60,000 nt of DNA from Mobula hypostoma (Eukaryota): positions 95,172,001 to 95,232,000 of the forward strand of contig NC_086107.1 in NCBI RefSeq assembly GCF_963921235.1. The letters are read 5' to 3'. The notes beneath the pieces are model-generated. The model saw only the letters and a program-made list of their open reading frames with translations. It searched no databases and was not told the DNA's origin. Shown here in pieces: positions 6,540-53,990 of the stretch; the first letter of the stretch is position 1, and each line of letters begins with the position of its first letter. Position numbers and translations under genes: made by a program.

Positions 6540-9500
6540 CTCATCTTCTTCAACGATGGCATTGATCCCTGCGGTGCCCAGTGGTTTCAGATCAACTCTG
6601 TTACCTGTGGATGCCACGTGTTCTCTTTCCAGTCATAACCCCTGAACATTGTCAGGCAGTGAGCCTAGTCAGTACTTACCGCTGCCCATCTCCAGGACCC
6701 ACAGATAATTATCTTAGCCAGCCCCAGGAGCAAGTTAACTAGGACATCCTCCTCCCACCCTGACCCCCTCCTTACTGGATGACCAAAGATGGAGAGGGTG
6801 GGGCTAAAATGCAGCCAGAAGGCGAGAAACAGCCCCCTCAGCTATGCAGGTAGGGGCTGCAGCCTCGTACACTCTGTGTACATATGGTTCACGGTTTCTT
6901 TCAGCCAGCAGAAGTGACAGGCAACTGGGAGATCCGTGTAGAAGGGGTGGGCATGCTAACAGAAGGGCTTCCACTGGGAACCCCCTCGCTCCCAGGTGTG
7001 AAGATTGGCTGGGACGGTGAACGACGGCTAGGAAATGGATGGCGCGAGGCAGCAGCTCACGCAGGTACCCCCTACCTGCAGCTCTGAAAGGGACTGTAGG
7101 TCTTGATGTGAGATGGCTCAAGCTTTGAGGGACCAGCTCCCAGATAAGATTCTGTGGCTTGGGGCCGACGAGCAACTCCAGTTGAGCAGAGGTGGGCTCA
7201 GCCAGAATTACTCCACTGACTCGAGCCGCACCAGCACCCAGTGAGGTAGGACTGGGACCCTCAGCCTGGCCAGAAGTAACCTTAGCAAGTCCTGATAGAA
7301 GTCTGCAGAACAGCACGGCTGACGTCCACCAGGGATAGCCAAGTCACTTCGTTAAGGCGGCGGCCACCCTGGAGTAGGGACGTCATGAGCACATGACATC
7401 TGGGAAGGTGCTTGGTGTACAGCAGGGTCCTGAGGCCAAGAGTTGCCAACGTGTGCAGACACACACCAGCGACTGTCTACCATTTCCAATGAGGAGACTC
7501 AGGATCACTGCAAAGACCTAGTATTTCCTGTTGCCCAAGAAGTCGTCCACTAACTTTCTCTGCATTTTGTGGCAAAGGCAACATGGCCATTCGGTACCGA
7601 AAAACCCTACCTCGGTAGGAAAGTTCCCTGAGAAGCCAGGTCATGACATTCATCTCTAGGTCTTCCCAATTCGCCAGCCAGGCCTCCCAGAGGAACTCAG
7701 ATAGATGAGATGCTTGGTGCTCCATGCAAAATATGTCATCACCCGAGGCAGGGAGTCTGCCTGCCACGGACCCACTAAGAGTCTGGAACATTATGCCCAG
7801 TTCATCCTGGGGAAGGATGGAGCTGCACAAACCTGGCATCATCTGCAGGTCGCCAGGATCTGTCACCATCGGGAGCACGTCATTGGTATAGGCCGATAGG
7901 CAACCTCCATGTCCAACTCGTACGGAACTAGACTCTCTGAAGAAGACACAGGACTGGCTCTGCATAGATGGCATACAACCAGCCAGACTTGGGGATTCCC
8001 CAACATACTTCCCTGTGAAAGGGAGTGGACGCCATCAACGATCCATTAACCTTGACAAGGCACTTTGTGGCAGAGTGTAACAGCGAAACCCATACTACAA
8101 AGTGTGGTCCAGGCCTGCAGCGTGCCCACCAGAAAACTGTGGTCTACCTAATCCCACACTTTCTCCTGGTCAAAGGAAGAAATGCTGCCAGGGATCCAGT
8201 CTCCTGGAGCAGGTGGATCAGATCCCCAACTAGATGAACATTGTCCAGAATAGACCGGCCCAGGACTACGTTGGAATGGTCAGCATGGATCACCTGGCCC
8301 AACACTGAGCCAAGACTGTTGGCCATTGTCCAAGTGAAGATGTAGTCCACACACAAAATGGAGACCAGACACTTAAGATCTCCTTTCTTGAGCAACAGGT
8401 ACATGACAGCTCTCCGACACAATTAAATTTGCGGACGATACCACAGTGGTTGGCCTGATCTCGGACGAGGATGAAACAGCCTACAGGCTTGAGGTGGATC
8501 ATCTGATGGAATGGTGTAAGGACAACAACCTGGTCCTTAACACTTCTAAAACAAAAGAGATGATCATTGACTTCAGGAGATCAAAGGACAGAGTACACCC
8601 CGCCCCCCCCCCCGCCCACCTCCATATACATGGAGAGGTAGTGGAAAGTGTGGAAAACCTAAAGTTCCTTGGAGTTATGTTGTCAAAACAGCTGACATGG
8701 ACCACCAACACCTCGCTGCTTATAAAAAAGGCACAACGAAGACTGTTCTTCCTCAGAAAGCTGAAACAGGCCAAACTCCCACAAAAGCTGTCGCTTAACT
8801 TCTACAGAAGCACAATTGAAACCATCCTGACCAACAGCGCCACAGTGTGGTATGCCAGCTGCACAGCCGCTGAGCGACAAGACCTGCATCGCGTGGTGAA
8901 GGCAGCCCAGCGAATTGTCAGGATGGAGCTCCCAGGACCGGACGCCATCTATTCCAGCAGACTCAGGAGAGCAATCAGCATAACCAGAGACACCACACAC
9001 CCCGGCCGCTCCCTGTTTGACCCGCTGCCGTCCAGCAAAAGGGTCAGGACACTAAAAGCCAGAACAAGTAGACTGAGGAACAGCTTCTATCCCAGAGCTG
9101 TGGCCTCCATCACACCACTCCCACAGAACAATGACTGAAACTGTCAGCATACACAAGGACTCAAATACTTGCATTAATGGCACTTTGTGCATTACTGTGA
9201 TATTCTGGTGCTGCTGCAACTTATTTTCAGTTACTTACCTATTTAATACTGTTTTTCTATTACTCTCTTGTTTTTATCTACGGCTTTATTTAATTGCCTT
9301 AGAGAAAGCCAAACAGAGTTTCATTGTACCTATGTATAATAACAATAAAGATCATTCAATTCAATTCAAAAGGTGAATCTTCCTGGTGCCTAAGCTCTCC
9401 CCTAGAACAAGACTATAATCATCCTCCAGGACATCCCAGAAAGCTTGAAGGGCATCTAGGCTAGGGGACTTGACCCTCAGGAAGTGCTTGAAGGGCTATA

Positions 9501-10690
9501 GACAGCTCATCTCAAGTTGGGAGCATCCAGCCTGACCATCAGCAAACCCTCCCAGACCTCACTGCATGCTTCCACGCTTGATGGATCTGGTGAGAACAAG
9601 GGCCTGTAGAAGGAGAAGAATTCTTTGTTGATTTCATCAGGCCCCATCAGAGGCTAGTAACTACTCTCCTCCACTTCTCTAATGAATAGAAGGGTGAGCC
9701 ACAGTCCAAATCCTGCAGCATTTGGATCCGTGACGTCATATGTGCACCTTGGGGCTGCTGGAGCTACAGATCCTTCGGTGAGTCCTTCCTTCTGGTATAG
9801 CTGTGGATCCTCAGCAGTTGGACCAAGTCGAGCAACTCTCTTTCAAGCTGCGCAATCTCAGAGCCCCACATCTTTATCAACCCCCTAGTGTACTCCTGAC
9901 ATAGAAATCAGATGTGGGCAAAGCCCACATCCCACCATAGCTGGAGGGAGCAGAAATCCTCATGCCTGTCCTTCCAGGTGGCCCAGAACACCTGGAGCAA
10001 ATCCTGAAATCGGCTGTCCTTCAGCAGACGGTTATTAAAATGCCAATACCTGGACCGCACCCTGCAACTGCATCCACATGACGTGGTGCTCTGAACGTGG
10101 CACAGGCTGCATGGAGGCTACTCGTGCACAAGAGGCATACGTCTAAGAAATATAGAGGTGGTTTATGCAGCCCCACCCCCAACCTTCTCAAGAAGGCGCT
10201 GGAGTCAGGATGAATGTGTCCACCAAGCCAAAGGAGCCCACTAACTCCTTTAACTTCTTCATCGACGCTGGAGACCTGAGTCATCCCCCTCCTCGAGGGT
10301 ACAGTCGAAATCTCCTGAGGATGACGCAGTCCCCAGCATCGATGGAACTCAGCAGGGTGAACACCCGATGGAACAGGTGCATCTGCAACACCCTGCCCCC
10401 AGGGGCATACACATTGACAAATAGCAATGGTATGCCGTCCAGACACACAGCAAGGTGGAGCAGACGGCTGGGAATGATATCCTGGACTTTTATGATTTCT
10501 ACTGGAATGTCGGGGCCAACAAGATTGCCACCCCACTGGTGATGGAGCTGAGGTGGCTCGTGTAGACCCCTCTCTGCCACTCCAGGAGCCAAGTGGACTC
10601 ATCTCCTGGAATGGTATTGATTTCCTGCAGGAAACTCGCTGCATATCTCCCATTGTTAAGGATTGCGAGATTGTTAAACTTGCGGAGAGA
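6540..10690 (-). mobile_element. Degenerate Tx1-clade LINE ORF2 (endonuclease and RT), interrupted by a younger LINE at 8419-9369
   Basis: Remnants FLQE and GVAILLAP (endonuclease), LLLKKGDL, GRSILDNVHLVGDLI and LSAYTNDV (decayed YADD) across minus-strand ORFs. Confidence 0.75.
8419..9369 (+). mobile_element. Young 5'-truncated Rex/Babar-like LINE nested in the Tx1 element
   Basis: Open frame from IKFADDTTVVGLI through ORF 8446..9138; AATAAA at 9344 and an (ATTCA)n tail. Confidence 0.85.
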
Positions 10691-10699
10691 ACCCTGCCC

Positions 10700-10840
10700 T
10701 GTCTGCGTGTGCACTTGTGGGAATTTGCATGTTCTCTGTGTAACTGTGGGTTTCTCCCAAATGCTCTGGTTTCTCCCAGTGTCTCAACAACAGGAGGGAG
10801 GGTGGGAATTGGTCCCTGTGAATCCCACCCATGGGTAGGT
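10700..10840 (+). mobile_element. V-SINE-like fragment (other copies at ~42560-42830 -, ~46730-46997 -, ~52495-52622 +)
   Basis: Core resembling GGAGTTTGCACGTTCTCCCCGTG...GGGTTTCCTCCGGGTGCTCCGGTTTCCTCCCAC, the V-SINE central domain (recalled). Confidence 0.6.
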
Positions 10841-13900: not shown

Positions 13901-14420
13901 GGTCAGACCACATTCTGCGTATTGTGAGTAGCTTTGGGCCCTATATTTTAGAAAGAACGTGCTGGCATTGTAGAGGGTTCAGAGGAGATTCACGTGGATG
14001 ATTCTGGGAATGAAATGGTTAAAGAACGATGAGTGTTTGATGGCTCTTGGTCCTGTACCTTTGAGTTCAGGAGGAAGAGATGAGGGGAGGGATCTTACTG
14101 AAACCCCCCAGGCTTGGATAGAATGGACGTGGAGAGGACATCCACATCAGTGGGAGAGCTTGGGATCCAAGGACACAGTCTCAAAATAAAGAGACGACCC
14201 CGTAGAACGGAGACGAGTAATTTCTTCACCCAAAGGGTGGTGAGTCTGTGGATGGCTGTGGACAACATGTCATTGGGTGTGTTTAGGACAAAGGTTGATA
14301 GGTTCTTGATCAGTGAGGAAGTTGAGGGCTGCAGGGAGGAGGCCAGAGAATGGGTTTGAGAGAAATCTCGGATGTGGATTAAAGGGGCAACAGACTGAGT
14401 GGCCTCGTTCTGCTCCTGGA
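11000..14420. mobile_element. Cluster of old CR1 3' fragments (mostly minus strand; 13750-14420 plus strand) in ELOB intron 2
   Basis: Motifs RTRGYSFK, FTQRVVSLW and VRKANAMFAFVSRGIEYK in short ORFs. Confidence 0.7.
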
Positions 14421-14655
14421 AGAGAGAACTCTGCGGTGCACTGTCCTTCACCGGGTGATAGAGGAACTGCCACTTGGTGAGGGAGCTGACCCAGCGCTGG
14501 GGGAGACGGTGGATCCTCTCATCGACCATCTGAGTCGCAGCGAGAATATTTGTGTGTCTGTACCTGTGAGGTGTACAGTTACACAACACTAACTTGTTTT
14601 TGCACTCTTGTCTCCACCTCGTCTCTCCTCCCTCTCTCTCTCCCTCCCCCCACAG

Positions 14656-14764
14656 GATGACCAGCTGCTGGACGATGCGAAGACGCTGGGTGACTGTGGC
14701 TTCACCAGCCAGACCGCCCGACCCCAAGCGCCGGCCACAGTGGGACTGGCCTTCAAATCGCTGG
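14656..14764 (+). CDS. ELOB: Elongin B exon 3
   Basis: Polypyrimidine tract, then cag|GAT...CTGG|gtgagt; 109 nt encoding [36 protein letters not shown] plus 1 nt. Confidence 0.97.
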
Positions 14765-15689
14765 GTGAGTATCCCACACCTTGAGGGGGAGAGGGGTGCC
14801 TCGGCCACGTTCCGAGATGCAGCTCTCTCCCATTTCCCATCCCCGGCTGTACAGCGGGGTGGGGAGAGGAAAAGCTGGGTGGGAGTTTTAGACGGGTAGG
14901 GGATGGTGGTGTAAGGCCTGAGAGGGAAGGAGAAGGCTGGAGGGCTTCCTCTGCACCTGGACTGCTCGCCCTCTCTACCCCCACCATCTGCCTCGAGCTC
15001 CATGCTCTCCACACATACGTCCCCCCAACCCTCTGCCATTTGCAATTCTGCTGCCTTGACCCTATTTGGAAGTAGCTCTTGAGTCCACAACACTGGCTGA
15101 TCTTGCCCCTCTGTGCAGCCTCTGTTAACAATGTTATAGATTCCCAAACCCCTGCCCCCCCCTCCCAAAAGAGATACTAAGAGACGCTGGCTGGTGTACA
15201 GAACACCCCCTGAAAGAGAGAGATTGCGGGCCACCAGTCAGTGTTCCCCTGCAAGGCACTGGTTGGTGTTCAGATCTCCCCCGCGAGGCACCAGTTGGTA
15301 TACGGATTGGACCTCTGTAGATATTCTTCTTAGTTCCCTTTCACCTCCCCACCCCTTCCCAGGAGCCATGCTGCTCCACACCCCTGCACACTCCCCAACA
15401 CCCACCCCTCACTCTGAGCTGCCAGTCAGAGGAAGCAAGGTGAGCGAGGGCAGATTGTTTCCTGCATTCACACAGGAAAAGAGCAGCTGTCATTCAGCCG
15501 CAGTGGGGGAACTGTAGAAGATGGGGCTCCTTATCACACACGCAGTCGTCCATCCGACATCACTTCATTCACTGCCTCCTCCCTCTCAATCTTGCTGTTT
15601 CCGCCTCTTCTCTCTCTCCCCCACCCCATGTCTGCTGAGTTGAAAGAATGGGCAGAGAAGTGGTCTAACTCGGGTTTTATATTACCTCA

Positions 15690-21731: not shown

Positions 21732-24716
21732 CATAGAAACATAGAAAATAGGTGCAGGAGTAGGCCATTCGGCCCTTTGAGCCTGCACCGCCATTTATTA
21801 TGATCATGGCTGATCATCCAACTCAGAACCCCGCCCCAGCCTTCCCTCCATACCCCTTGACCCCCGTAGCCACAAGGGCCATATCTAACTCCCTCTTAAA
21901 TATAGCCAATGAACTGGCCTCAACTGTTTCCTGTGGCAGAGAATTCCACAGATTCACCACTCTCTGTGTGAAGAAGTTTTTCCTAATCTCGGTCCTAAAA
22001 GGCTTCCCCTCTATCCTCAAACTGTGGCCCCTCGTTCTGGACTTCCCCAACATCGGGAACAATCTTCCTGCATCTAGCCTGTCCAATCCCTTTAGGATCT
22101 TATACGTTTCAATCAGATCCCCCCTCAATCTTCTAAATTCCAACGAGTACAACCCCAGTTCATCCAGTCTTTCTTCATATGAAAGTCCTGCCATCCCAGG
22201 AATCAATCTGGTGTACTCCCTCTATGGCAAGGATGTCTTTCCTCAGATTAGGAGACCAAAACTGCACACAATACTCCAGGTGTGGTCTCACCAAGGCCTT
22301 GTACAACTGCAGTAGTACCTCCCTGCTCCTGTACTCAAATCCTCTCGCTATAAATGCCAGCATACCATTCGCCTTTTTCACCGCCTGCTGTACCTGCATG
22401 CCCACTTTCAATGACTGGTGTATAATGACACCCAGGTCTCATTGCACCTCCCTTTTACCTAATCGGCCACCATTCAGATAATAATCTGTTTTCCTATTTT
22501 TGCCACCAAAGTGGATAACTTCACATTTATCCACATTAAATTGCATCTGCCATGAATTTGCCCACTCACCCAACCTATCCAAGTCACCCTGCATCCTCCT
22601 CACAGCTAACACTGCCACCCAGCTTCGTGTCATCCGCAAACTTGGAGATGCTGCATTTAATTCCCTCATCCAAGTCATTAATATATATTGTAAACAACTG
22701 GAGTCCCAGCACTGAGCCTTGCGGTACCCCACTAGTCACCGCCTGCCATTCTGAAAAGGTCCCGTTTATTCCCACTCTTTGCTTCCTGTCTGCTAACCAA
22801 TTCTCCACCCACACCAGTACCTTACCCCCAATACCGTGTGCTTTAAGTTTGCACACTAATCTCCTGTGTGGGACCTTGTCAAAAGCCTTTTGAAAATCCA
22901 AATATACCACATCCACTGGTTCTCCCCTATCCACTCTACTAGTTACATCCTCAAAAAATTCTATGAGATTCGTCAGACATGATTTTCCTTTCACAAATCC
23001 ATGCTGACTTTGTCTGATGATTTCACCGCTTTCCAAATGTGCTGTTATCACATCCTTGATAACTGACTCCAGCAGTTTCCCCACCACCGACGTTAGGCTA
23101 ACCGGTCTATAATTCCCCGGTTTCTCTCTCCCTCCTTTTTTAAAAAGTGGGGTTACATTAGCCACCCTCCAATCCTCAGGAACTAGTCCAGAATCTAACG
23201 AGTTTTGTAAAATTATCACTAATGCATCCACTATTTCTTGGGCTTCTTCCTTAAGCACTCTAGGATGCAGACCATCTGGCCCTGGGGATTTAGCTGCCTT
23301 CAATCCCTTCAATTTACCTAACACCACTTCCCTATTAACAAGTATTTCGCTCAGTTCCTCCATCTCACTGGACCCTCTGTCCCCTACTATTTCTGGAAGA
23401 TTATTTATGTCCTCCTTAGTGAAGACATAACCAAAGTAATTATTCAATTGGTCTGCCATGTCCTTGCTCCCCATAATCAATTCACCTGTTTCTGTCTGCA
23501 GGGGACCTACATTTGTCTTTACCAGTCTTTTCCTTTTTACATATCTATAAAAGCTTTTACAGTCTGTTTTTATGTTCCCTGCCAGTTTTCTCTCATAATC
23601 TTTTTTCCCCTTCCTAATTAAGCCCTTTGTCCTCCTCTGCTGAACTCTGAATTTCTCCCAGTCCTCAGGTGAGCCACTTTCTCTGGCTAATTTGTATGCT
23701 TCTTTGGAATTGAGATTATCCCTGATTTCTCTTGTCAGCCACGGGTGCACTACCTTCCTTGATTTATTCTTTTGCCAAACTGGGATGAACAATTGTTGTA
23801 GTTCATCCATGCAACCATTAAATGCTTGCCATTGCATATCCACCGTCAATCCTTTAAGTGTCATTTGCCAGTCTATCTTAGCTAATTCATGTCTCATACC
23901 TTCAAAGTTACCCCTCTTTAAGTTCAGAACCTTTGTTTCTGAATTAACTATGTCACTCTCCATCTTAATGAAGAATTCCACCATATTATGGTCACTCTTA
24001 CCCAAGGGGCCTCTCACGACAAGATCGCTAATTAACCCTTCCTCATTGCTCAAAGCCCAGTCCAGAATAGCCTGCTCGCTAGTTGGTTCCTCGACATGGT
24101 GGTTCAAAAAACCATCTCGCATACATTCCAAGAAATCCTCTTCCTCAGCACCTTTACCAATTTGGTTCACCCAATCTACATGTAGTCACCCATTATAACT
24201 GCTGTTCCTTTATTGCACACATTTCTAATTTCCTGTTTAATACCATCTCCGACCTCACTACTACTGTTAGGTGGCCTGTACACAACTCCCACCAGCGTCT
24301 TCTGCCCCTTAGTGTTACGCAGCTCTACCCATATCGATTCCACATCTTCCCAGCTTATGTCCTTCCTTCTATTGCGTTAATCTCTTCTTTAACCAGCAAC
24401 GCCACCCCACCTCCCCTTCCTTCATGTCTATCCCTCCTGAATATTGAATATCCCTGAACGTTGAGCTCCCATCCCTGGTCACCCTGGAGCCATGTCTCTG
24501 TGATCCCAACTATATCATAATCATTAATAACAATCTGCACTTTCAATTCATCCACCTTATTACGAATGCTCCTTGCATTGACACACAAAGCCTTCAGGCG
24601 CTCTTTTACAACTCTCTTAGCCCTTATACAATTATGTTGAAAAGTGGCCCTTTTTAATACTTGCCCTGGATTTGTCGGCCTGCCACTTTTACTTTTCTCC
24701 TTAGTACTTTTTGCTT
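21732..24716 (-). mobile_element. Young 5'-truncated CR1 LINE (nearly full ORF2 with several small deletions/frameshifts)
   Basis: ORFs 24355..24729, 22584..24170, 22175..22411 and 21823..22206 are near-identical to ORF2 at 26825; (TTTCTATG)n tail at 21732. Confidence 0.95.
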
Positions 24717-24936
24717 CATGGCTGATCATCCAACTCAGAACCCTGCCCCAGCCTTCCCTCCATACCCCCTGATCCCCGTAGCCACAAGGGCCATATCTAA
24801 CTCCCTCTTAAATATAGCCAATGAACTGGCCTCAACTGTTTCCTGTGGCAGAGAATTCCACAGATTCACCACTCTCTGTGTGAAGAAGTTTTTCCTAATC
24901 TCGGTCCTAAAAGGCTTCCCCTTTATCCTCAAACTG
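24717..24936 (-). mobile_element. Extra tail-less 3'-end fragment of the same CR1 family, fused to the 5' end of the previous copy
   Basis: Near-duplicate of ~21805-22025. Confidence 0.85.
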
Positions 24937-25433: not shown

Positions 25434-25883
25434 GTGCCGAAAAAGAGATTTTTGAAATTTTCGTTATTTTTTTTCTCCAACGGCTTTCTGAGAGGTGGGA
25501 CTGCGCACGCGTGTGACGTCGGGCAGTGCAGCGCGGCAGATTTAAAAGGGCAGACATCCTGCTTCGGATTTGATTCGAAGAAGGAGTCTGAGAGTCTGAG
25601 TGGGAGTGCCGAAAAAGAGATTTTTGAAATTTTCGTTATTTTTTTTCTCCAACGGCTTTCTGAGAGGCGGGACTGCGCAGGCGTGTGACGTCGGGCAGTG
25701 CAGCGCGGCAGATTTAAAAGGAACAGAGCCTCAGAGAGCGGGCAGCGTAGTTTGCGGGCAGCGGAGTGAGCCGGGAGCAGAGTGAAGACTTAAGGGCTTC
25801 GGCTCACCGGGCTTAGGCGGAAGCGGGCGAGGCGAGGAAGGTTTGACATTCATTTTCTGTTACTATTTGAGGAGAGGGGCATT

Positions 25884-26819
25884 ATGACTGTGAGGGCAGT
25901 TTGCTGTTCTCGGTGTCGGATGTGGGAGGCCCTGGAGTCTCCAAGCCTCCCGGACGTCTACATCTGCGCCAAGTGCATCGAGATGCAGCTCCTAAGGGAC
26001 CGCGTTACGGAACTGGAGCTGCAGCTCGATGACCTTCGTCTGGTCAGGGAGAGCGAGGAGGTGATAGAGAGGAGTGGAAGGCAGGTGGTCACGCCGGGGC
26101 CACGGGAGGCAGACAAGTGGGTCACGGTTAGGAGGGGGAAGGGGAAAAGGAAGGTGATGGGGAGTACCCCGGCGGCTGTGCCCCTTAACAACAGGTACTC
26201 CTGTTTGAGTACTGTTGGGGGGGACAGCTTACCCGGGGGAAGCGACAGTGGCCCTGCCTCCGGCACAGAGTCTGGCCCTGTAGCTCAGAAGGGTAGGGCA
26301 AGGAAGAGGAGGGCAGTTGTGATAGGGGACTCGATAGTAAGGGGGTCAGATAGGCGATTCTGTGGACGCAGTCCAGAGACACGGATGGTAGTTTGCCTCC
26401 CTGGTGCCAGGGTCCGGGATATTTCTGATCATGTCCAAGATATCCTGAAGTGGGAGGGTGAAGAGCCAGAGGTCCTGGTACATATAGGTACCAATGACAT
26501 AGGTAGGAAAAGGGATGAGGTCCTGAAAGAAGAATATAGGGAGCTAGGAAGGGAGTTGAGAAAAAGGACCGCAAAGGTAGTAATCTTGGGATTACTGCCT
26601 GTGCCACGCGACAGTGAGAGTAGGAATGCGATGAGGTGGAGGATAAATGCGTGGCTGAGGGATTGGAGCAGGGGGCAGGGATTCAAGTTTTTGGATCATT
26701 GGGACCTCTTTTGGCGCAGGTGTGACCTGTACAAAAAGGACGGGTTACACTTAAATCCTAGGGGGACCAATATCCTGGCAGGGAGATTAGCGGGGGCTAC
26801 TGAGGTGACTTTAAACTAG
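25884..26819 (+). CDS. CR1 ORF1p: Cys-rich zinc finger, coiled coil and SGNH/GDSL esterase
   Basis: CSRC..CAKC, LELQLDDL heptads, VIGDSIV, HIGTND, DGLHL; 311 aa with no lesion. Confidence 0.9.
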   Translation: MTVRAVCCSRCRMWEALESPSLPDVYICAKCIEMQLLRDRVTELELQLDDLRLVRESEEVIERSGRQVVTPGPREADKWVTVRRGKGKRKVMGSTPAAVPLNNRYSCLSTVGGDSLPGGSDSGPASGTESGPVAQKGRARKRRAVVIGDSIVRGSDRRFCGRSPETRMVVCLPGARVRDISDHVQDILKWEGEEPEVLVHIGTNDIGRKRDEVLKEEYRELGRELRKRTAKVVILGLLPVPRDSESRNAMRWRINAWLRDWSRGQGFKFLDHWDLFWRRCDLYKKDGLHLNPRGTNILAGRLAGATEVTLN

Positions 26820-29800
26820 AATGGTTGGGGGGTGGGAATCAAATTAAAGCGGCAAGGTGTGAGGAGGTTAGTTCACAACAGAGGGATGGGAACCAGTGCA
26901 GAGAGACAGAGGGGTGTAAAGTGAGCGTAGAAGCAAAAAGTACAAAGGGGAAAAGTAAAAGTGGCAGGCCGACAAATCCAGGGCAAGCATTAAAAAGGGC
27001 TAAGAGAGTTGTAAAAGAGCCCCTGAAGGCTTTATGTGTCAATGCAAGGAGCATTCGTAATAAGGTGGATGAATTGAAAGTGCAGATTGTTATTAATGAT
27101 TATGATATAGTTGGAATCACAGAGACATGGCTCCAGGGTGACCAGGGATGGGAGCTCAACGTTCAGGGATATTCAATATTCAGGAGGGATAGACACGAAG
27201 GAAGGGGAGGTGGGGTGGCGTTGCTGGTTAAAAAAGAGATTAACGCAATAGAAAGGAAGGACATAAGCCGGGAAGATGTGGAATCGATATGGGTAGAGCT
27301 GCGTAACACTAAGGGGCAGAAGACGCTGGTGGGAGTTGTGTACAGGCCACCTAACAGTAGTAGTGAGGTCGGAGATGGTATTAAACAGGAAATTAGAAAT
27401 GTGTGCAATAAAGGAACAGCAGTTATAATGGGTGACTTCAATCTACATGTAGACTGGGTGAACCAAATTGGTAAAGGTGCTGAGGAAGAGGATTTCTTGG
27501 AATGTATGCGGGATGGTTTTTTGAACCAACATGTCGAGGAACCGACTAGAGAGCAGGCTATTCTGGACTGGGTTTTGAGCAATGAGGAAGGGTTAATTAG
27601 CGATCTTGTCGTGAGAGGCCCCTTGGGTAAGAGTGACCATAATATGGTGGAATTCTTCATTAACATGGAGAGTGACGTAGTTAATTCAGAAACAAAGGTT
27701 CTGAACTTAAAGAGGGGTAACTTTGAAGGTATGAGACATGAATTAGCTAAGATAGACTGGCAAATGACACTTCAAGGATTGACGGTGGATATGCAATGGC
27801 AGGCATTTAAAGGTTGCATGGATGAACTACAACAATTGTTCATCCCAGTTTGGCAAAAGAATAAATCAAGGAAGGTAGTGCACCCGTGGCTGACAAGAGA
27901 AATTAGGGATAGTATCAATTCCAAAGAAGTAGCATACAAATTAGCCAGAGAAAGTGGCTCACCTGAGGACTGGGAGAAATTCAGAGTTCAGCAGAGGAGG
28001 ACAAAGGGCTTAATTAGGAAGGGGAAAAAAGATTATGAGAGAAAACTGGCAGAGAACATAAAAACGGACTGTAAAAGCTTTTATAGATATGTAAAAAGGA
28101 AAAGACTGATAAAGACAAATGTAGGTCCCCTGCAAACAGAAACAGGTGAATTGATTATGGGGAGCAAGGACATGGCAGACCAATTGAATAATTACTTTGG
28201 TTCTGTCTTCACTAAGGAGGACATAAATAATCTTCCAGAAATAGTAAGGGACAGAGGGTCCAGTGAGATGGAGGAACTGAGCGAAATACATGTTAGTAGG
28301 GAAGTGGTGTTAGGTAAATTGAAGGGATTGAAGGCAGATAAATCCCCAGGGCCAGATGGTCTGCATCCCAGAGTGCTTAAGGAAGTGGCCCAAGAAATAG
28401 TGGATGCATTAGTGATAATTTTACAAAACTCGTTAGATTCTGGACTAGTTCCTGAGGATTGGAGGGTGGCTAATGTAACCCCACTTTTTAAAAAAGGAGG
28501 GAGAGAGAAACCGGGGAATTATAGGCCGGTTAGCCTAACGTCGGTGGTGGGGAAACTGCTGGAGTCAGTTATCAAGGATGTGATAACAGCACATTTGGAA
28601 AGCGGTGAAATGATCGGACAAAGTCAGCATGGATTTGTGAAAGGAAAATCATGTCTGACGAATCTCATAGAATTTTTTGAGGATGTAACTAGTAGAGTGG
28701 ATAGGGGAGAACCAGTGGATGTGGTATATTTGGATTTTCAAAAGGCTTTTGACAAGGTCCCACATAGGAGATTAGTGTGCAAACTTAAAGCACACGGTAT
28801 TGGGGGTAAGGTATTGGTGTGGGTGGAGAATTGGTTAGCAGACAGGAAGCAAAGAGTGGGAATAAACGGGACCTTTTCAGAATGGCAGGCGGTGACTAGT
28901 GGGGTACCGCAAGGCTCAGTGCTGGGACCCCAGTTGTTTACAATATATATTAATGACTTGGATGAGGGAATTAAATGCAGCATCTCCAAGTTTGCGGATG
29001 ACACGAAGCTGGGTGGCAGTGTTAGCAGTGAGGAGGATGCTAAGAGGATGCAGGGTGACTTGGATAGGTTGGGTGAGTGGGCAAACTCATGGCAGATGCA
29101 ATTTAATGTGGATAAATGTGAAGTTATCCACTTTGGTGGCAAAAATAGGAAAACAGATTATTATCTGAATGGTGGCCGATTAGGAAAAGGGGAGGTGCAA
29201 CGAGACCTGGGTGTCATTATACACCAGTCATTGAAAGTGGGCATGCAGGTACAGCAGGCGGTGAAAAAGGCGAACGGTATGCTGGCATTTATAGCGAGAG
29301 GATTCGAGTACAGGAGCAGGGAGGTACTACTGCAGTTGTACAAGGCCTTGGTGAGACCACACCTGGAGTATTGTGTGCATTTTTTGGTCCCCTAATCTGA
29401 GGAAAGACATCTTTGCCATAGAGGGAGTACAAAGAAGGTTCACCAGATTGATTCCTGGGATGGCAGGTCTTTCATATGAAGAAAGACTGGATGAACTGGG
29501 CTTGTACTCGTTGGAATTTAGAAGATTGAGGGGGGATCTGATTGAAACGTATAAGATCCTAAAGGGATTGGACAGGCTAGATGCGGGAAGATTGTTCCCG
29601 ATGTTGGGGAGGTCTAGAACGAGGGGTCACAGTTTGAGGATAGAGGGGAAGCCTTTTAGGACCGAGGTTAGGAAAAACTTCTTCACACAGAGAGTGGTGA
29701 ATCTGTGGAATTCTCTGCCACAGCAAACTGTTGAGGCCAGTTCATTAGCTATGTTTAAAAGGAAGTTAGATATGGCCCTTGTGGCTACAGGGGTCAGGGG

Positions 29801-30199: not shown

Positions 30200-31860
30200 G
30201 TTTTGCATTTTATACAAATCATTCCATACACAAATACAGTGAGGTAATACAAAGATAGGTACTTCATTATCCCAAAGGAAACTACAGTGTCACAGTAGCA
30301 AGTGCACAGATATATAAATATTAGATTAGAAGTAGAAAATAAAAAATAAGTTACCACAGTCTAACAGGAGGGAGTTATCACTTCCCTGGCTATAGGTTGA
30401 TTCATTATAGAGCCTAATGGCCGAGGGTAAGAGTGACCTCTGTGGAGCAGCACAGTTGTCTTAGTCTTTTACTAAAAGTGCTCCTCCATTCAGCCAAGGT
30501 GGCATGCAGAGGGTGAGAAACATTGTCCAGAATTCTTTTTTTAAATCTTTTTATTAATTTTCCAAAGTTATAAACAAAATAACAATGTTGATACAGAGAG
30601 ATTGGAATAATCTTATTGTTAATAAACATATACAGAAAAGATTTCAAATAATACAGGTATAATAGACTTCCAAAGTCATGATGTAATTAATCATAGAGAA
30701 AAAAGAAATTAAAAAAATACAAAGAAAAACACCAAAAAGAAACAAAAAAAAACTAACTACTAAACCCAAAAAAGCAAACAGAACAAAATAAGGCTAGACC
30801 ATTATCTTAAATCGAACACGTTCAATAATGTCGTCAACTCCGCTCCTCTATTCATATATTTTAAGTTAAGAAGGATTCGGAAAGGTCAAATTACATTATA
30901 TGAAAATGTTGAATAAATGGTTTCCAAGTCTCTTCAAAATTAACCAAAGGATCAAAAATGTCACTTTTAATGTTTTTTTAAATTTAAACATAATATAGTT
31001 TGAGAAAACCATTGAAATGAAGTAGGAGGATTGGTCTCCTTCCATTTCAATAAAATGGATCTTCTGGCCATTAAAGTAACAAATGCAATCATCTGACAGG
31101 CTGAAGAAAATAAAAATCTATGTTCTACCACTGGCAATCAAAAATTGCCGTAATAGGATGGGGTTGTAAATCAAAACACAGAACTGTTGAGATAATATCA
31201 AAAATATCTTTCCAATATTTTTCCAAAAGAGGACAGGACCAAAACATATGAGTTAAAGAAGCCACCTCAGAGTGACATCTGTCACAAATAGGGCTAATTT
31301 ATCTTTAGACATATGGGCCCTATGCACTACTTTAACTTGTATTAATGTATGTTTAGCACATATGGAGGAAGTACTGACTAATTGACATGGTCCAGAATTA
31401 CCAGGAGTAGAGTCCTTTGTTCTGCCACAGCCTCAGTGTCCAGTTTGATTCCTTTAACAGTGCCAGCCTTTCTAATCATTTTATTACGCCTGTTGGCATC
31501 ACCTGTGTTGATGCCATTGCCCCAGCTCACCACCACATAGAAGATTGTACTGGCAGCAACAGACTGGTAGAATATGTGAGGAGAGGCTTGCATACTCCAA
31601 AGGACCTCAGTCTCCTCAGGAAGCAGAGGTGACTCTGGTCCTTCTTGTACACAGCCTCTGTGTTGGTGCTCCACTCAAGTCTGTCATCCAGGTGCACCCC
31701 CAGGTACTTGTAGGTCCTCATCACATCCACGTCTTCACCATCAATAGTAACAGGGAGCAATGCAGGCTTAGTCTTCCTAAAGTCCATCACCATCTCCTTT
31801 GTCTTACTGATGTTGAGCTGCAGATGATTCATCTTGCACCATTTGACAAAGTCCTCCGCC
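30200..31860 (-). mobile_element. Rex/L2-type LINE 3' fragment split by an L1 insertion
   Basis: ORF 31527..31832 LQLNISKTKEMVMDFR..YKYLGVHLD; continues at 30200-30534 (SHPLHATL). Confidence 0.75.
30535..31384 (-). mobile_element. 5'-truncated L1-clade LINE with target-site duplication
   Basis: Minus strand encodes CDRCHSEVASLTHMFWSC (C-terminal CCHC); poly-T at 30536; 15-bp TSD ACAT(T/G)GTCCAGAATT at 30520-30534 and 31385-31399. Confidence 0.85.
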
Positions 31861-33157
31861 GAAGTTCAGTGCAGGCAGGCAATGGTGCAGGGACCATGAC
31901 AAGGTAGATCATGAGGTCAAGAGTCCATCTGATTGTACTAGGGAAACTCAATACTCTTATAACGGCAGGGTAGAAGCTGTCCTTGAGCCTGCTGGTACGT
32001 GCTTTCAGGCTTTTGTATCTTCTGCCTGAGGGGAAAAGAGAATGTCTGAGATGGATGTGGCAGTTGATTATGTTGTCTGGTTTACCAAGGCAACAAGAAG
32101 TAGAGACAGATTCCATAGAGGGGAGGCTGGTTTTGTGATGCGCTGTGTCCACACTCTCTGTCTTGGGCTGAGCAGTTGCCATACCAAGCAGCGATGCATC
32201 CGAATAGGGTTGGTGAGGGTTGACAGAGACGTGCCAAATTTCTTAAACCTCCTGAGGGGATGGAGGCGCTGATGTGCTTTCCTGGTTGTGGTGTCTACAC
32301 AGTTGGACCATGAGGGGCTATTGGTAACGTTCAAACATGGAAGATCTTGAGGGAACTTGGAAGGGTTGGATGTGGAGATGCTTCGATCACAACAAGAAAC
32401 ACAGTTACAAACTAAGGGGCTGGCTATTTAAAGTGGAGGTCCGTGAAGATCTCTGAGAACATAGAAAACAGTATAGCACAGCCCTTCAGCCACCCTGTTG
32501 TAGCATTATAGCACACTGCAACACAAACAGGCCCTTTGGTCCATCCGGTTCATGTTAAACTGTTATTGTGCCTAGTCCCATTGACTGCACCTATCCCTTA
32601 GCCCTCTGTACCCCTCCCAGCCATGTAATTATCGAAACTTCCCTTAAATGTTGCAGTTGAACACATCCACCACTTATGCTGGCAGCCCATTCCACACTCA
32701 GTACTAGGGAAACGCTCAGTAATCTTATAACAGTAGGGCAGAGGCTGTCCTTGAACCTGGTGGGACATGAGTGAAGAAAGCTGCGCATGTTCTCTTTAAA
32801 TATTTCACCTTTCACCCTAAACCCATGACCTCCAGTTCCAGTCTCACCCAACCTCAAACTGCTTGCATTTACCATAATTGAGTACACCTCAATCAAATCT
32901 GCCCTTCGAGGAGTAAGGTCCTAAGCTATTCAACATTTCCCTATAACTCAGGTCTGGACAACATCCTTGTAAATGTTCTGTGTACTCTTTCAACCTTATT
33001 GATCTCTTTCCTGTAGGTAGGTGACCAGAAATGCACACAATACCCCAGATTTAGCCTCATCAACACTTTACACAATTTCAACATAACATTCCAACTCCTG
33101 TACTCAATAACCTGATTTATGAAGGCCAACATGCTAAAAGCTCTCTTTACAAGTTTA

Positions 33158-35453
33158 CAGTGGTGGCAGAAAGTTTTTGAACCCTGTAGAATTTTCGCTA
33201 TTTCTGTGTAAGGAGTTTCTTTTTTTATGTTACTGCTAAGGCTAATAAAAATGGCTTCTTTGTTATGTTAACGGCCGAGAAAGTGCTTCTCTATAGCAGC
33301 TTGTTTGGGTTATAATTACTGATAGAGAGAATTGTATTAATTTACTAACCAATTGGGATAGATGTTATTCTTTCTTGTGTGTCTGTAAGCTATTGTTTTC
33401 GCGGGCTTTGGGGCAGAAGGCACAATGGGGACAGAGAGAGGAGATGCGACGCTGTAAGCTGAGCGATGGAATGCACCCCGAGTGGGAGTTTGAGGCCCAG
33501 GGTTTTCGGGAGGAGAACTGAAGAGGAAGGACGTGCTGGACACGCTCTGGTCGACAACCGTGGTTGGTCCCAGGCAGCGGGTTGAGGGGGTTGGAGGAGA
33601 TCGCATTGTGGAAAGAAGACCCTATTCATTGAGCTCCAACGGTTGTGCACGAAGTGATTGAACTTTGATAAGTTCAGCACCTTTTACTTTCCTTTTATAT
33701 TTTATCTCTACAGTATTAATTACTTAGTTCCAGTAAGGTCTATAAAGTCTAATCATTTAATCACATATGGTGTATTGGTTGTTATTTGGCAGGGTGGGGT
33801 ACATCACACAGCATCCACACAAACTTGATTACCCAGTTTGGTGGGGCCAAAGGCTGCTCCCCCAGATGAAAGTGAGCTGAGCAAGCCTGAGGCTTTCCAG
33901 GGGGCTACATCTGCATAAATGTGACCTAAAATGTGATCAGATCTTCATGCAAAGCCTAAAACTAGATAGACAATCCAATTAAATAACATAAAAACATTAT
34001 ACTTGTTCATTTATTTATTGAGAAAAATTATTGAATATTCCATGTATTTGTTGGGAAAAGTATGTGAACCTCTGGGGTAATGCCATCTACAAACGCTATT
34101 TAGAGTTAGGTGTTCCAATCAGTGAGATGAGATTGGAGGTGTGAGTTGTAGAGGTGCCCTGCCCTATAAAAAAAGATACACTAAGTCAGGTTACTGACAG
34201 AGTCTGCTCTTCTCAAGGAAGATCTGTTTATGTGTACCTTGCCTCGATCAAAACAACTTTCAGAGGACCCTAGAAGAAGAATTGTGGAGATGCATGAAGC
34301 TGGAAAAGCTACAACAGCATTTCCAAAGCCCTGAGTGTTCATCAGTCCACAGTAAGAGAAATTGTCTACAAATGGAGGAAATTCAGTTCTGTTGCTTCTC
34401 TCCCTAGGAGTGGGCATCCTGCAAAGATCACACCAAGAGCACAGTGTGCACTGCTGAAGGAATTGAGAAAGAACCCAAGGGTAACAACAAAAGACCTGCA
34501 GAAATCTCTAGAACTTGCTAAAGTCTCTGTTCATATGCCCACTATAAGAAAAATGCTGAACAAGAATGGAGTTTGTGGAAGGACACCATGGAGGAAACCA
34601 CTGCTCTCCAAAAAAAAACAATTACTGCACATCTCAAGTTTGCAAAAGACCTCCTGGATGTTCTGAGACAATGGTCTGTGGACAGTTGAACTTTTTGGCC
34701 GAAATGCACATTGCTACGTTTGGAGGAAAAAGGGCACTGCACACAACACCAAAATTCCATCCCAAGTGTGAAGCATGGTGGAAGGAGATGGTTTGGGGCT
34801 GCTTTGCTGCCTCAGGGCCTGGACAGATTGCAATCGTTGAGGGAACAATGAATTCAAAATTGTATCAAGACATTTTGCAGGGAAATGTCAGGGTAGTTGT
34901 CTGTCACCTGAAGTTTATTAAAGTTGGATAATGCAACAAGACAATGATCTGAAAGACAAGAGTAAATCAACAACAGAATGGTTTAAAAAGAAGAAAATTC
35001 ATGTTTTGGAATGGCAGAGTGAAAATCCTGACCTTAATCCTATAGAAATGTTTTGGAAGGACCTAAAGCAAGCAGTTCATACAAGGAAGTCCACCAACAT
35101 CTCAGAGCTGAAGCAGTTTTGTAAGGAGGAATAGCTTAGAATTTCTCCAAGCCAACATGCAGGACTAATAAACAGTTACCAGAAATGTTTGGTTGAAGTT
35201 ATTGCTGTACAAGGGGTTACACCAGTTACTGAAATCAAAGGTTCACATAATTTTTCCAACAAATACATGTAATATTGGATCGTTTTTCTCAATAAATAAA
35301 TGAACAAGTATAATGCTGCTTTGTGTTATTTATTTAATTGTGTTCTCTTTATCGAGTTTCAGAATTTGCATGAAGATCTGATCACATTTTAGGTCATATT
35401 TATGCAGAAATAGAGAAAATTCTGCAGGGTTCGCAAACTTTCTAGCACCACTA
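33158..35453 (+). mobile_element. Degenerate full-length Tc1 (DD34E) transposon with long TIRs
   Basis: TA|CAGTGGTGGCAGAAAGTTT at the left end and AAACTTTCTAGCACCACTA|TA at the right end; ~200-bp inverted ends; transposase remnants PRSKQLSED, NPRVTTKDL and QQDND..PDLNPIE. Confidence 0.9.
33207..33909. mobile_element. Solo LTR (703 bp) inserted in the left TIR of the Tc1 element
   Basis: TGTA...TACA termini; 4-bp TSD TCTG at 33203-33206 and 33910-33913. Removing it restores the match to the right TIR. Confidence 0.85.
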
Positions 35454-48525: not shown

Positions 48526-50074
48526 CCAGCCCTTCTCTGCCACCTCTTGCCTCGGGGAAACCCAGCCGGGCCAGGCCTGGGGCCTTGTCTGAGTGCAGCC
48601 GCATCGCCTTGGTCTCTGGACCCGCAGAACTGGCCTGCCACCCCCTCCGAAAATCTACTCCTGGGACCATGGCCTCCATCCAGTTCCAGGATAGCTTCCA
48701 TCCCTCCCAAACCTTGAAGACCCAGCCCCAGGCTCCCGGCAACATCCAGGCCTCTGGGGCCTAAATCCAGAGACCTGGCCTTGATCTGGCCTTATTCCAC
48801 CCTCCACGATCATCTCACCCTTCCCCCCTGCCCCACCCCGACTTCAATCCTTACAACGAATCCCATTTCAGGACTCCCCTCCCTTGCTGAAGGGAGCGGT
48901 TAGGAGGATGGTGTAATTTTCCTGACCAGTGGGAGGTTGGGATGACAGAGGGAAGATGAGGCCTAGTCCTAGTCTGAGGCCTAGACTGCAAAGGAGGGCA
49001 CAAAGTGGTAAGTTCCCCGGGCTGACGCATGCCTCCTCCCGCTCTTGCCCTCCTCTCTGCCTTCTGCCGTGGTTTTGTTTACTTAGGCTTTGTTTAACCT
49101 TCTGTCTCTCTCCCCCCCTCTTCCTCCATCTCCCTTTCCCCCACCCTGACTGTATGTATCCTTCCCTCTCTACTCCTCCTCCCCAATACTCTCTCCTTTC
49201 CTGGCTCCCCCCAACTTCCCTTCCTTCTCTCCCTCTCTCTCCCTTCCCCTATCCTGCTCCCTAACTCACTCCCCCATCTCCCTCTCTCCCCTCCCCTAAC
49301 TCACTCCCCCATCTCCCTCTCTCTCTTTCTCCCTCTATCTCCTTCCCCCTCTTCCCCACATTTCTACCCCTACTTTCCTTTCTGCCCCCCACTGTCTTTC
49401 CCTCCTTCACTCCCCTCCCCAACCCCCTTCTCCTTCCCTCCCCACTCTCCCTCTCCCTACCCCTTTCACCTTCTCTCTCCCTCCCTCCCTCTCCAAGTGA
49501 GGTGAATTAATCCCATTTCACTAACAAAATGGCTGCCACCCCCCCCCGCCCCTTTCTTCCAAGAGATGTTTTGTGACTCTGGATTATCTACCCCTCACCC
49601 TTCCGTCTCTCCTGTCCGCCAGGATCTCTTCGCTGATGCCCCAGGTCCACACAGAGATGGGATCAGAGCTCGGAAGGCCCCAGTGTTTCCAGGGACGCCA
49701 GCAAGGCCTACAGGTGTAGAACAGACCTGCTTCCAAGGTGGCTACCTGACAACCATTCTCCATTCTTTTCAGTCCCCCGAGGAGAGGCACAGACTTGGAG
49801 ATTCCTTGGTGTAGACACAGCAGTTGCTTCCAGAAGTTTCCTTTATACTGAGGGGAGCCATTGCGAAGGGTGGAGGCTTCTGAGGCGAGGGGGCAGAGGT
49901 GAGTATTGTCTGGATGGGGAACAAGGATCCGTGCCTTGGGCCTCTTGTCTCTCTATTCCTCTCTCTCTCTCCCAATTCTCTCTCCAGTCTCTCTCTCCTC
50001 TCCCCTCCCCTCTCCCTCCCCCTCTCCATCAATCTCTCCACCTTCTCACCCCATCTGTGTGTGAAAGTCCATAT

Positions 50075-50660
50075 GAGAAGAGAGAGAGAATGTGTGAGAC
50101 AAAGAGAGATTGTGTGACAGGGAGTGTGTGTGTGTATGTGTGTGTGTGTGTGAGAGAGAGAGATTGTGTGTGAGAGAGAGAGTGTGTGTGAGGGTGTGTG
50201 TGTGTGTGAGAGAGTGCATGTGTGTGAGTGTGAGAGAGAGTGAGTGTGTGAGTGTGTGAGAGAGAGAGATTGTGTGTGAGAGAGAGTGTGTGTGAGTGTG
50301 TGTGTGTGAGAGAGAGAGTGTGTGTGAGTGTGTGTGTGAGAGAGAGTGAGTGTGTGAGTGTGTGTGAGTGTGTGAAAGTACATGTGTGAGTGTGAGAGGG
50401 TGTGTGTGAGAGTGTGAGTGTGTGTGTTAGTGTGTGTGTGAGAGTATGTGTTTGAAAGAGAGTGAGTGTGTGTGAGAGTGAAAGAAAGAGTTTGTGTGAG
50501 AGGGATTATGTGTGAGAGAGTGAGAGTATGAGAGAGAGAGAGAGAGAGAGAGAGTGAGTGAGAGAGAGAGTGAGAGAGAGAGAGAGTGAGTGTGTGAGAG
50601 AGAGAGAGAGTGAGTGTGTGAGAGAGAGAGAGAGAGAGTGAGTGTGTGAGTGAGAGAGCT
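50075..50660. repeat. Compound (GT)n/(GA)n simple repeat
   Basis: Seen directly in the sequence. Confidence 0.95.
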
Positions 50661-51017
50661 GCGAATAAACGGGTCTGTGCGATCCGTCGAGCGACGGAGG
50701 GTCGGGCGGAGACCAGCGACAGTGACGGTGGGGTGGAGATGGGAGGGTGGGGAACGGATGGCATGGAGTGTACCGGAGGCTGCGGTGTGGACGGGAGGGA
50801 GAGGGTTGTTGAGGAGATTTGAGGATGGTGGCGAGCGACTCCTGGGAACCGACGTGATGGTGGGCCGGAGACCGGAGACCAGCAGGCAACCGGAAGAGTG
50901 GGGAACGCACGGGTTGGGACAGTGGGGTGGGGAATGGACAGGACGGTGGGGGGTGCTGACGGGAAGGTGAGGAAGGAGCGGACTGGAGCGAACGGACAGA
51001 AGACCGGCGAGGAACCA

Positions 51018-51102
51018 ACAGTGCACTCTCCCATAAAGTAGCGAGCATTACTCAGTGCCTCTGCCGTTGTAGTGTTTCCTACTTTATGGATGAGTGTACT
51101 GT
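51018..51102 (+). ncRNA. MIR142: miR-142 family precursor hairpin (divergent 5p arm)
   Basis: 3p arm TGTAGTGTTTCCTACTTTATGGA (51068-51090) equals canonical miR-142-3p; 5p arm CATAAAGTAGCGAGCATTACT (51032-51052); basal stem ACAGTGCAC/GTGTACTGT; CNNC motif (CTTC) at 51106-51109. Confidence 0.96.
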
Positions 51103-51279
51103 GAACTTCAGATCCACGTGTCTGCCCGACCCGACCACAGCGGGGACCCTCGCCCACCATCTCCCCGCCTGCGATCGCCCTCGCTCTCCGCTTGTCACTC
51201 GCGGTGGTCACGATTTAAATAAAGGTCAGTAACACGAAACCTGGCTGTCTCGCCGTGTTCTGGAGCTTGGACTGTTGTC

Positions 51280-51410
51280 ACACTCCATCTCTCTCACACA
51301 CACACTCCCTCCCTCTCACACACAGACACACACACAGACAGACACAGACACACAGACACACACACACACACACACACCCTCCCTCTCACACATAGACACA
51401 CACACAGACA

Positions 51411-51457
<47 letters not shown>

Positions 51458-51700
51458 ACACACACACACTCCCTCCCTCTCACACACAGACACACACAGA
51501 GACAAAGACACAGACACACAGACACACACACACACACACACCACATGCAGATACGCAGTCTCGTGCATTCACCCAAACACATCGACACAGATGCAGACAC
51601 ACAACACACACACAAGTACTCACAGATACACACACGTGATACAGAGACACAACTAGTCACAGATACGCACACACATAACACACAGATGCACAGACACACA
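51280..51700. repeat. Compound (CA)n simple repeat
   Basis: Seen directly in the sequence. Confidence 0.9.
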
Positions 51701-53249: not shown

Positions 53250-53990
53250 TTATTATCACCGGCAAGTCTCGAGAAATTTGTTAACTTAGCGGCAGCGGTA
53301 CAATGCAATACCTGATAATACAGGGGGAAATAAATAATTAATTCACAGTAAAAATTTTAAATAGTTAAATTAAATATAGTGCAAAACAGAAATAATAAAA
53401 GTGAGGTAGTGTTCATAGGTTCAATGTCCATTTAGGAATCGGATGGTAGAGAGGAAGAAGCTGTTCCTGAATCGCTGAGTTTGTGCCTTCAGGCTTCTGT
53501 ACCTCCTTCCTGACGGTAATAACGAGAAGAGGGCATGTCCTGGCTGATGGGTTTCCTTAACAATGGACGCCACCCTTCTGAGGCACCGCTCCTTGAAGAT
53601 GTTTTGGATACTACGGAGGCTAGTACCCAACATGGAGCTGGCTAATTTTACAACAGTCTGTAACCGCGCCACCCCCCCCCCCCCCATACCAGACAGTGAG
53701 GCTGCCAGTCAGAATGCTCTCCACAGTACATCTGTAGAAGTTTTCAAGTGTCTTTGGTGACAAACCAAATCTCCTCAAACTCCTAATGAAGTATAGCCGC
53801 TGTCTTGCCTTCTTTATAGCTGCATCGATGTATTGGGACCAGATTAGATCCTCTGAGATCGTGACACCCAGGAACTTGAAATCACCCACTCCTGATCCCT
53901 CTATGGGGATTGGTTTGTGTTCCCTCGTCTTACCCTTTCTGGTCCACAATCAGCTCTTTGGTCTTACTGACGCTGAGTGCCAGGCTGTTA
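53250..53990 (-). mobile_element. Rex/L2-type LINE 3' fragment
   Basis: FKFLGVTISEDL..KARQRLYFIRSL..LLPSGRRYRSL in ORFs 53620..53949 and 53421..53687. Confidence 0.8.

Follow-up and report, generated by a model that had tools for sequence, protein, structure and literature searches.

Genes and repeats at the locus

The window, a 60,000-nt stretch of Mobula hypostoma contig NC_086107.1 (C45 in our numbering), carries a hairpin of the mir-142 family on a 640-nt island of unique sequence flanked by microsatellites (Table 1). The hairpin lies between two convergent genes, ELOB on the plus strand and an SRRM2-like gene on the minus strand, in the gap that separates their 3' ends. The ELOB exon, which also gave a weak Pfam ubiquitin match, is 45 kb upstream of the hairpin on the same strand. 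On the other side, the SRRM2-like gene includes a cwf21 exon at 95.2535 Mb and an 896-aa RS-rich ORF at 95.241-95.244 Mb, and the nearest RS-rich ORFs are roughly 13-18 kb from the hairpin. We take human ELOB and SRRM2 to be convergent too.

Two further genes define the neighborhood to the left of the window. PKMYT1 was identified by homology to the PKMYT1 structure in the PDB (E 5.6e-30 versus 2.3e-13 for the next kinase). The Kremen-type gene has its Kringle, WSC, and CUB exons in order, with a Kringle match of 33.4 bits, just below the cut-off of 34.3. This Kremen-like/PKMYT1/ELOB/SRRM2-like block matches human 16p13.3, and the placement of the hairpin in a 16p13.3-type neighborhood is supported. 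An earlier reading made from the sequence alone (the sequence-only reading) had linked the hairpin to ELOB and PKMYT1. That linkage stands, with an ELOB exon in the window and PKMYT1 nearby, but PKMYT1 itself is outside the window. A position inside it was ruled out by a Pfam search that matched Pkinase in 0 of 599 window ORFs (all 489 of at least 55 aa, plus 110 of the 122 of 38-54 aa, in parts of the first 16.8 kb) and by six-frame regular expressions, which found no kinase motifs in the window.

The rest of the window consists of LINE, Tc1, and DDE debris, based on Pfam searches of the ORFs. Three long ORFs considered as genes (14098-15237, 10024-10839, and 49772-51214, all on the minus strand) were rejected, as they are low-complexity or repeat-derived and have no Pfam match. 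A seemingly intact LINE at 25794-29392 (+) has a 341-aa GDSL/SGNH esterase ORF followed directly by an 863-aa endonuclease and reverse-transcriptase ORF, and could be young and perhaps still active. A second LINE is on the opposite strand, with a 533-aa ORF containing RVT_1 at 22587-24185 (-) and an endonuclease fragment at 24358-24807 (-). Remnants of Tc1/Sleeping-Beauty-type transposases (HTH_Tnp_Tc3_2, HTH_SB, DDE_3) are found at 34298-35131 (+) and at L017 6125-7150 (+), the latter 16-17 kb past the right end of the window. Pfam 'ALKBH8_N' matches adjoin reverse-transcriptase fragments, for example at 8407-9135 (+), 53623-53949 (-), and 31530-31865 (-); in this genome the model seems to respond to a segment carried by LINEs, not to ALKBH8 genes.

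Table 1. Features of the two mir-142 loci and their surroundings. Plain ranges are window positions; C45 and C71 are contigs.
Feature	Position	Strand	Remarks
(GT)n/(GA)n microsatellites	50124..50658		Left border of unique island
Second mir-142 pri-miRNA stem (basal stem, both arms, loop, CNNC)	51018..51110	+	Rfam RF01896, fold
Basal stem, 5' side (-14 to -1)	51018..51031	+	11/14 nt as canonical; -2 and -3 unpaired
5p arm	51032..51052	+	Seed AUAAAG intact; differs from canonical at 11 (51042), 12 (51043), and 17 (51048)
Apical loop	51053..51067	+	15 nt; unrelated to the canonical 16-nt loop
3p arm	51068..51090	+	23/23 nt same as canonical; 1 of only 2 exact genomic copies
Basal stem, 3' side	51091..51109	+	17/19 nt as canonical; CNNC (CUUC) at 51106-51109
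AATAAA, candidate poly(A) signal for a short primary transcript	51218..51223	+	~115 nt downstream of stem; from sequence only
(CA)n microsatellite	51295..51545		Right border of unique island
Kremen-type gene, Kringle-WSC-CUB exons	C45:95078448-95081937 (L006 6448-9937)	+	141 kb left of hairpin
PKMYT1 kinase exons	C45 95.154-95.163 Mb	-	9-18 kb left of window start
ELOB (Elongin B) coding exon, residues ~2-46	~6087-6221, C45 95.178 Mb	+	PDB Elongin-B, E 5e-20
Hairpin	C45 95.223 Mb	+	Between ELOB and SRRM2-like gene
SRRM2-like gene	C45 ~95.236-95.254 Mb (L016 9333 to L017 2020; L018 1535-1798)	-	Right of window
Canonical mir-142	C71 37.486 Mb		RF01896
SUPT4H1-type gene	C71 37.683 Mb		Genome's only Spt4 match; 197 kb from canonical mir-142
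RNF43-like ZNRF_3_ecto exons	C71 38.01-38.07 Mb		About 0.52 Mb from canonical mir-142

The hairpin is a member of the mir-142 family

Family membership was tested against the curated gathering score of RF01896, the Rfam mir-142 family, which is 57 bits. The hairpin matched the full model (positions 1-85) on the plus strand at 51019-51102, with 82.7 bits and an E value of 8e-16. Within 2 kb of it, no other Rfam family matched at E up to 0.1. The plus strand (111 nt) folds at -49.8 kcal/mol with a z score of -7.74, and 0 of 200 shuffled sequences were as stable; the pre-miRNA folds at -23.8 kcal/mol. Based on the fold and the pair table, the two arms form an imperfect duplex of ~22 bp in a stable hairpin. 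The mature sequences that define the family are also present, as the 3p arm (23/23) and 5p positions 1-10 are identical to those of the canonical copy on contig C71. These results confirm that the C45 hairpin is a real member of the mir-142 family.

MirGeneDB-type annotation calls for small-RNA reads on both arms, with 5' ends that are uniform and 3' overhangs of 2 nt. A search of sequencing runs with window positions 50700-51400 returned 21 runs, with a best share of 0.34 and the others at or below 0.18; such shares are, on their own, no evidence of expression, habitat, or conservation.

The genome has two mir-142 loci

We searched the whole genome (3.48 Gb) with the covariance model, and two mir-142 loci emerged among the 65 first-look candidates scored. 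One is the flagged locus (C45:95223019-95223102, 82.7 bits). The other, at C71:37486100-37486184, scored 105.2 bits and has the canonical 5p and 3p arms. The exact 23-mer of the 3p arm occurs only twice in 3.48 Gb, which excludes a chance origin, while a search allowing up to 3 mismatches gave 13 matches, versus 13 for the reversed control. A possible third copy on C5, the best near-match to the 3p arm with 2 mismatches, was discarded because it had no Rfam match at E up to 1.

Thus, the flagged hairpin is not the sole mir-142 in the genome, in agreement with the sequence-only reading, which had proposed a second locus. Nor is it the copy that is syntenic with mammals: the C71 locus adjoins SUPT4H1 and an RNF43-like gene, and the C45 locus is elsewhere. 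For human 17q22, we take the gene order to be RNF43-SUPT4H1-MIR142.

The 5p differences between the two copies preserve the fold

The canonical C71 copy in the same genome was our reference for the arms, stem, and loop. The 5p arms are identical at 18 of 21 nt, with changes of A>C at position 11, A>G at position 12, and C>U at position 17. In the pair table, the mismatch at position 11 is kept (A11xC becomes C11xC), and the other two changes turn standard pairs into wobbles (A12-U10 into G12.U10 and C17-G5 into U17.G5). By rough arithmetic, three random changes would all be compatible with pairing with a chance of 0.03 to 0.13, depending on transition bias.

Beyond the arms, both copies have the CUUC motif at +16 to +19, counted from the 3p end. 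The basal stem differs at two places. A canonical G x G mismatch at -6 is a C-G pair in the C45 copy, and a 2x2 internal loop replaces the pairs at -2 and -3, beside the Drosha cut. The C45 duplex, at -23.2 versus -25.1 kcal/mol, is 1.9 kcal/mol weaker than the canonical one. Most of this weakening is at the 5' end of the 3p strand, where the terminal five pairs amount to -0.9 kcal/mol in the C45 copy versus -3.2 kcal/mol in the canonical copy.

This comparison bears out most of what had been read from the sequence alone: an exact miR-142-3p arm, three 5p differences that all fall outside the seed and all keep the fold, a correctly spaced CNNC motif at the canonical position, and a weakened duplex. 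The loop, which had been called unrelated to the mammalian one, is equally without relation to the canonical loop in the same genome. The description of the basal stem as retained was partly right, since most of its nucleotides are unchanged on both sides (Table 1), but the pairing is altered at -6 and at -2/-3.

Age and origin of the duplicate

A blastn comparison of 3 kb against 3 kb around the two hairpins gave one match of 96 columns at 79% identity and otherwise noise. With similarity limited to ~95 nt and the loops unrelated, a recent copy or segmental duplication, in which loop and flanks would still match, is excluded. The perfect 3p arm, intact seed, and CNNC motif have persisted while the loop and flanks diverged beyond recognition, which suggests selection on the parts retained. 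We infer from these comparisons, together with the gene linkages below, the age and mode of the duplication: the C45 copy is old and is probably a whole-genome-duplication paralogue.

Ten Pfam families were searched genome-wide for duplicated neighbors, with pairing judged by location and not by gene tree. Only aldolase and GDPD gave a clean C45/C71 pair. Aldolase exons occur on two contigs only (C71 at 3.37-3.38 Mb and C45 at 116.25 Mb), and GDPD exons occur on C36, C71 (8.04 Mb), and C45 (116.23 Mb), the C45 copy being 27 kb from the aldolase. Because C45 and C71 make up just 3.4% and 1.8% of the assembly, these placements are unlikely to arise by chance (roughly 0.001 and 0.004, by our own arithmetic). 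A second ZNRF_3_ecto gene is on contig C78 at 6.66-6.74 Mb, with a WSC exon 258 kb away at 6.406 Mb, an arrangement that presumably mirrors the human KREMEN1-ZNRF3 pair. This putative Kremen/ZNRF3-type pair, in which the Kremen-type label is given by a WSC exon, would form a bridge between the Kremen-type gene of C45 and the RNF43-type gene of C71.

Several other families gave no such pair. Genome-wide, Sox_N matched C68, C45, and C36 with no match on C71; Axin matched C36 and C68, and iRhom C36 and C69, in both cases neither C45 nor C71; and Yippee had a single match, on C18. Septin genes are 2.3 Mb (C71) and 1.6 Mb (C45) from the respective hairpins. We rejected them as a duplicate pair linking the contigs, as their exon sequences belong to separate subgroups; the C45 septin groups with those of C36 and C68, which places C45 also in a C36/C45/C68 set. 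The genome-duplication origin put forward earlier as a possibility fits the C45/C71/C78 links and the ~95-nt similarity, but Sox_N, Axin, iRhom, Yippee, and the septins provide no C45/C71 pair. The evidence that the two mir-142 loci are duplication-derived paralogues is good, though it stops short of closing the case. In metagenome contigs, searches for orthologues gave 0 matches to the exact 5p arm and 0 to a degenerate two-arm pattern with a non-A at 5p position 11.

The genome-wide searches also turned up two sets of unrelated matches. WSC exon matches at C2:152371252 and C2:153539300 have the same scores and lengths and are 1.17 Mb apart, and they may reflect either a recent duplication or a duplicate created in assembly. 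Weak matches to positions 6-77 of the Septin model are found on C12 (28.6-30.4 Mb), C13 (0.02-0.16 Mb), and C21 (185.65 Mb), inside open frames of mostly ~1170-1270 aa (one of 248 aa). These appear to be large GTPase-domain genes of a multi-copy family and not septins.

Predicted function and alternative explanations

The hairpin is likely to be a second, functional mir-142 gene, located on the plus strand in the ELOB-SRRM2-like gap and derived from an old duplication of the canonical gene. We infer its expression and processing from the conserved features of the stem. The hairpin would have its own primary transcript, which Drosha/DGCR8 would cut at the foot of the stem with help from the conserved CNNC motif 16-19 nt downstream, before Dicer cuts in turn. 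The predicted products are a miR-142-3p identical to the canonical one and a miR-142-5p with the same seed and different bases at positions 11, 12, and 17. The gene would have originated as an old copy of the canonical gene, most likely in the early vertebrate whole-genome duplications, to be kept in this lineage and lost from the mammalian ELOB-SRRM2 interval.

The small changes in the stem could affect how the products are used; the sequence-only reading proposed possible effects of the weakened duplex on arm choice, isomiR cutting, or ADAR editing. The U17.G5 wobble weakens the pairing at the 3p strand's 5' end, and 3p should therefore be favored more strongly than it is in the canonical gene. 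At the Drosha site, the 2x2 loop might displace, weaken, or impair cutting. The perfect 3p arm, the loosened 3p end, and this loop together also suggest a more specific reading, which we hold only tentatively and think doubtful: the two genes would split the arms, with the C45 copy as a dedicated source of miR-142-3p or as a producer of a shifted 5p isomiR with a different seed, and the canonical gene as the supplier of miR-142-5p. If true, this would be a case of duplicate retention through sub-functionalization of the arms.

A working gene could also have arisen in another way, by a small lineage-specific duplication in which a piece comprising the stem alone was copied into the ELOB-SRRM2 gap within the cartilaginous fishes and kept by selection. 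The ~95-nt extent of similarity would be expected of an old small insertion as well, in a window crowded with LINE, Tc1, and DDE remnants, and both the partial nature of the C45/C71 paralogy and the two metagenome scans that yielded no orthologue are compatible with it. We nevertheless regard this origin as unlikely, given the company that the two loci keep: the hairpin is 141 kb from a Kremen-type gene whose putative sister on C78 adjoins a ZNRF3-type gene, itself the sister of the RNF43-type gene on C71, and aldolase and GDPD pair C45 with C71. The MirGeneDB number on the human gene implies a second paralogue common to several taxa. In any case the copy must be old, as its loop has fully diverged while the arms were kept.

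The hairpin might instead be a decaying relic, a former miRNA gene that lost its transcription or correct cutting and survives by chance or through slow decay. Its duplex is weaker by 1.9 kcal/mol, two pairs at the Drosha cut are opened, its Rfam score is below that of the canonical copy, and microsatellites hem it in. Decay, however, would hardly have spared all 23 nt of the 3p arm, the 5p seed, and the placement of the CNNC motif while the loop and all flanks diverged beyond recognition, nor does it readily account for three 5p changes that are all compatible with pairing or for a fold still far better than those of shuffled sequences, so we think a relic very unlikely. A functional product might also come from the minus strand, as an antisense mir-142-like hairpin. 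The minus strand scores above the RF01896 cut-off (66.9 bits), as it does at the canonical C71 locus (77.8 bits), and an antisense 'mir-142b' is annotated in mouse. Yet the minus strand folds at only -38.5 kcal/mol (z -3.83), 11 kcal/mol worse than the plus strand, three G.U pairs of the plus strand become A x C mismatches, and it is the plus strand that carries the exact 3p arm and the CNNC motif. We thus predict that plus is the working strand and consider an antisense product extremely improbable. An old, working duplicate on the plus strand is the reading we carry forward.

Comparison with known mir-142 genes

In blood and immune cells miR-142 acts as a key regulator, and to our knowledge mammals have a single gene for it. 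With a second copy retained in an early-branching jawed vertebrate, it becomes easier to tell which miRNA duplicates from the vertebrate genome duplications survived and which were later lost. The synteny of the C45 locus would pin the lost mammalian copy to the ELOB-SRRM2 gap, and the C45/C71 pair can serve as a natural experiment on the way in which slight differences in the stem direct the choice of strand.

The canonical MIR142 (human 17q22, hsa-mir-142, Hsa-Mir-142-P2 in MirGeneDB 3.0) is the counterpart of the C71 copy here. The C45 copy is like it in Rfam family, 3p arm, 5p seed, the mismatch at 5p position 11, the CNNC position, and a similar basal stem. It is unlike it at 5p positions 11, 12, and 17, in the loop, in the closed -6 and opened -2/-3 positions, and in its weaker duplex and looser 3p 5' end. 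The neighbors differ as well, with ELOB, PKMYT1, SRRM2-like, and Kremen-like genes around the C45 copy and SUPT4H1 and RNF43-like genes around the canonical one.

In ray-finned fishes, mir142 strand choice is reported to be evolutionarily unstable: gar is strongly 5p-biased, and miR-142-5p dominates both there and in several teleosts (PMC8321539).

Published names suggest that a second mir-142 is already catalogued. Human MIR142 is called 'Hsa-Mir-142-P2 (MirGeneDB)' in a 2026 review (PMC13435480) and 'Mir-142-P1' in a 2022 preprint (bioRxiv 10.1101/2022.05.16.492160), and the MirGeneDB nomenclature is said to be one that 'explicitly recognizes paralogs' by synteny and phylogeny (PMC8789304). 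That the one human gene bears a P-number at all implies that another paralogue has been catalogued in other animals. This other Mir-142 paralogue (P1 or P2), one that humans lack, would match the C45 locus in kind and may be identical with it. Literature searches with Mir-142-P numbering returned the human gene or unrelated uses only, and those with species-prefixed Mir-142 names (Dre, Xtr, Cmi, Gga, Loc, Xla) returned miRBase-style uses only. Searches for mir-142-1/-2 in Xenopus found no Xenopus paper, the portions of the PMC10927551 supplements available contained no Mir-142, and the shark and cartilaginous-fish literature gave only a detection of miR-142-3p in bamboo-shark liver, which is unable to separate the loci.

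A described parallel is in zebrafish, where a second miR-142 gene has long been known: miR-142a and miR-142b have a common 5p seed, and the intergenic miR-142b, on chromosome 9, has a 5p arm that departs from the canonical at position 12 (PMC2427041). The two genes were knocked out together in published mutants (PMC4860776). The C45 copy resembles dre-mir-142b as a second, separately placed, intergenic mir-142 with the same 5p seed and a change in the center of the 5p arm. However, dre-mir-142b differs at position 12 only, and by another base than the C45 copy, so no derived state in common ties the two together; the zebrafish gene may be either an orthologue of the C45 copy or a teleost-specific duplicate of the canonical gene. 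Whether an existing annotation would remove the novelty of the locus, a question raised with the sequence-only reading, is answered in kind by the MirGeneDB P-number and the second zebrafish gene. The ray locus introduces no new principle. It is one more member of a recognized kind, the second mir-142, and the gain is a documented member with its synteny.
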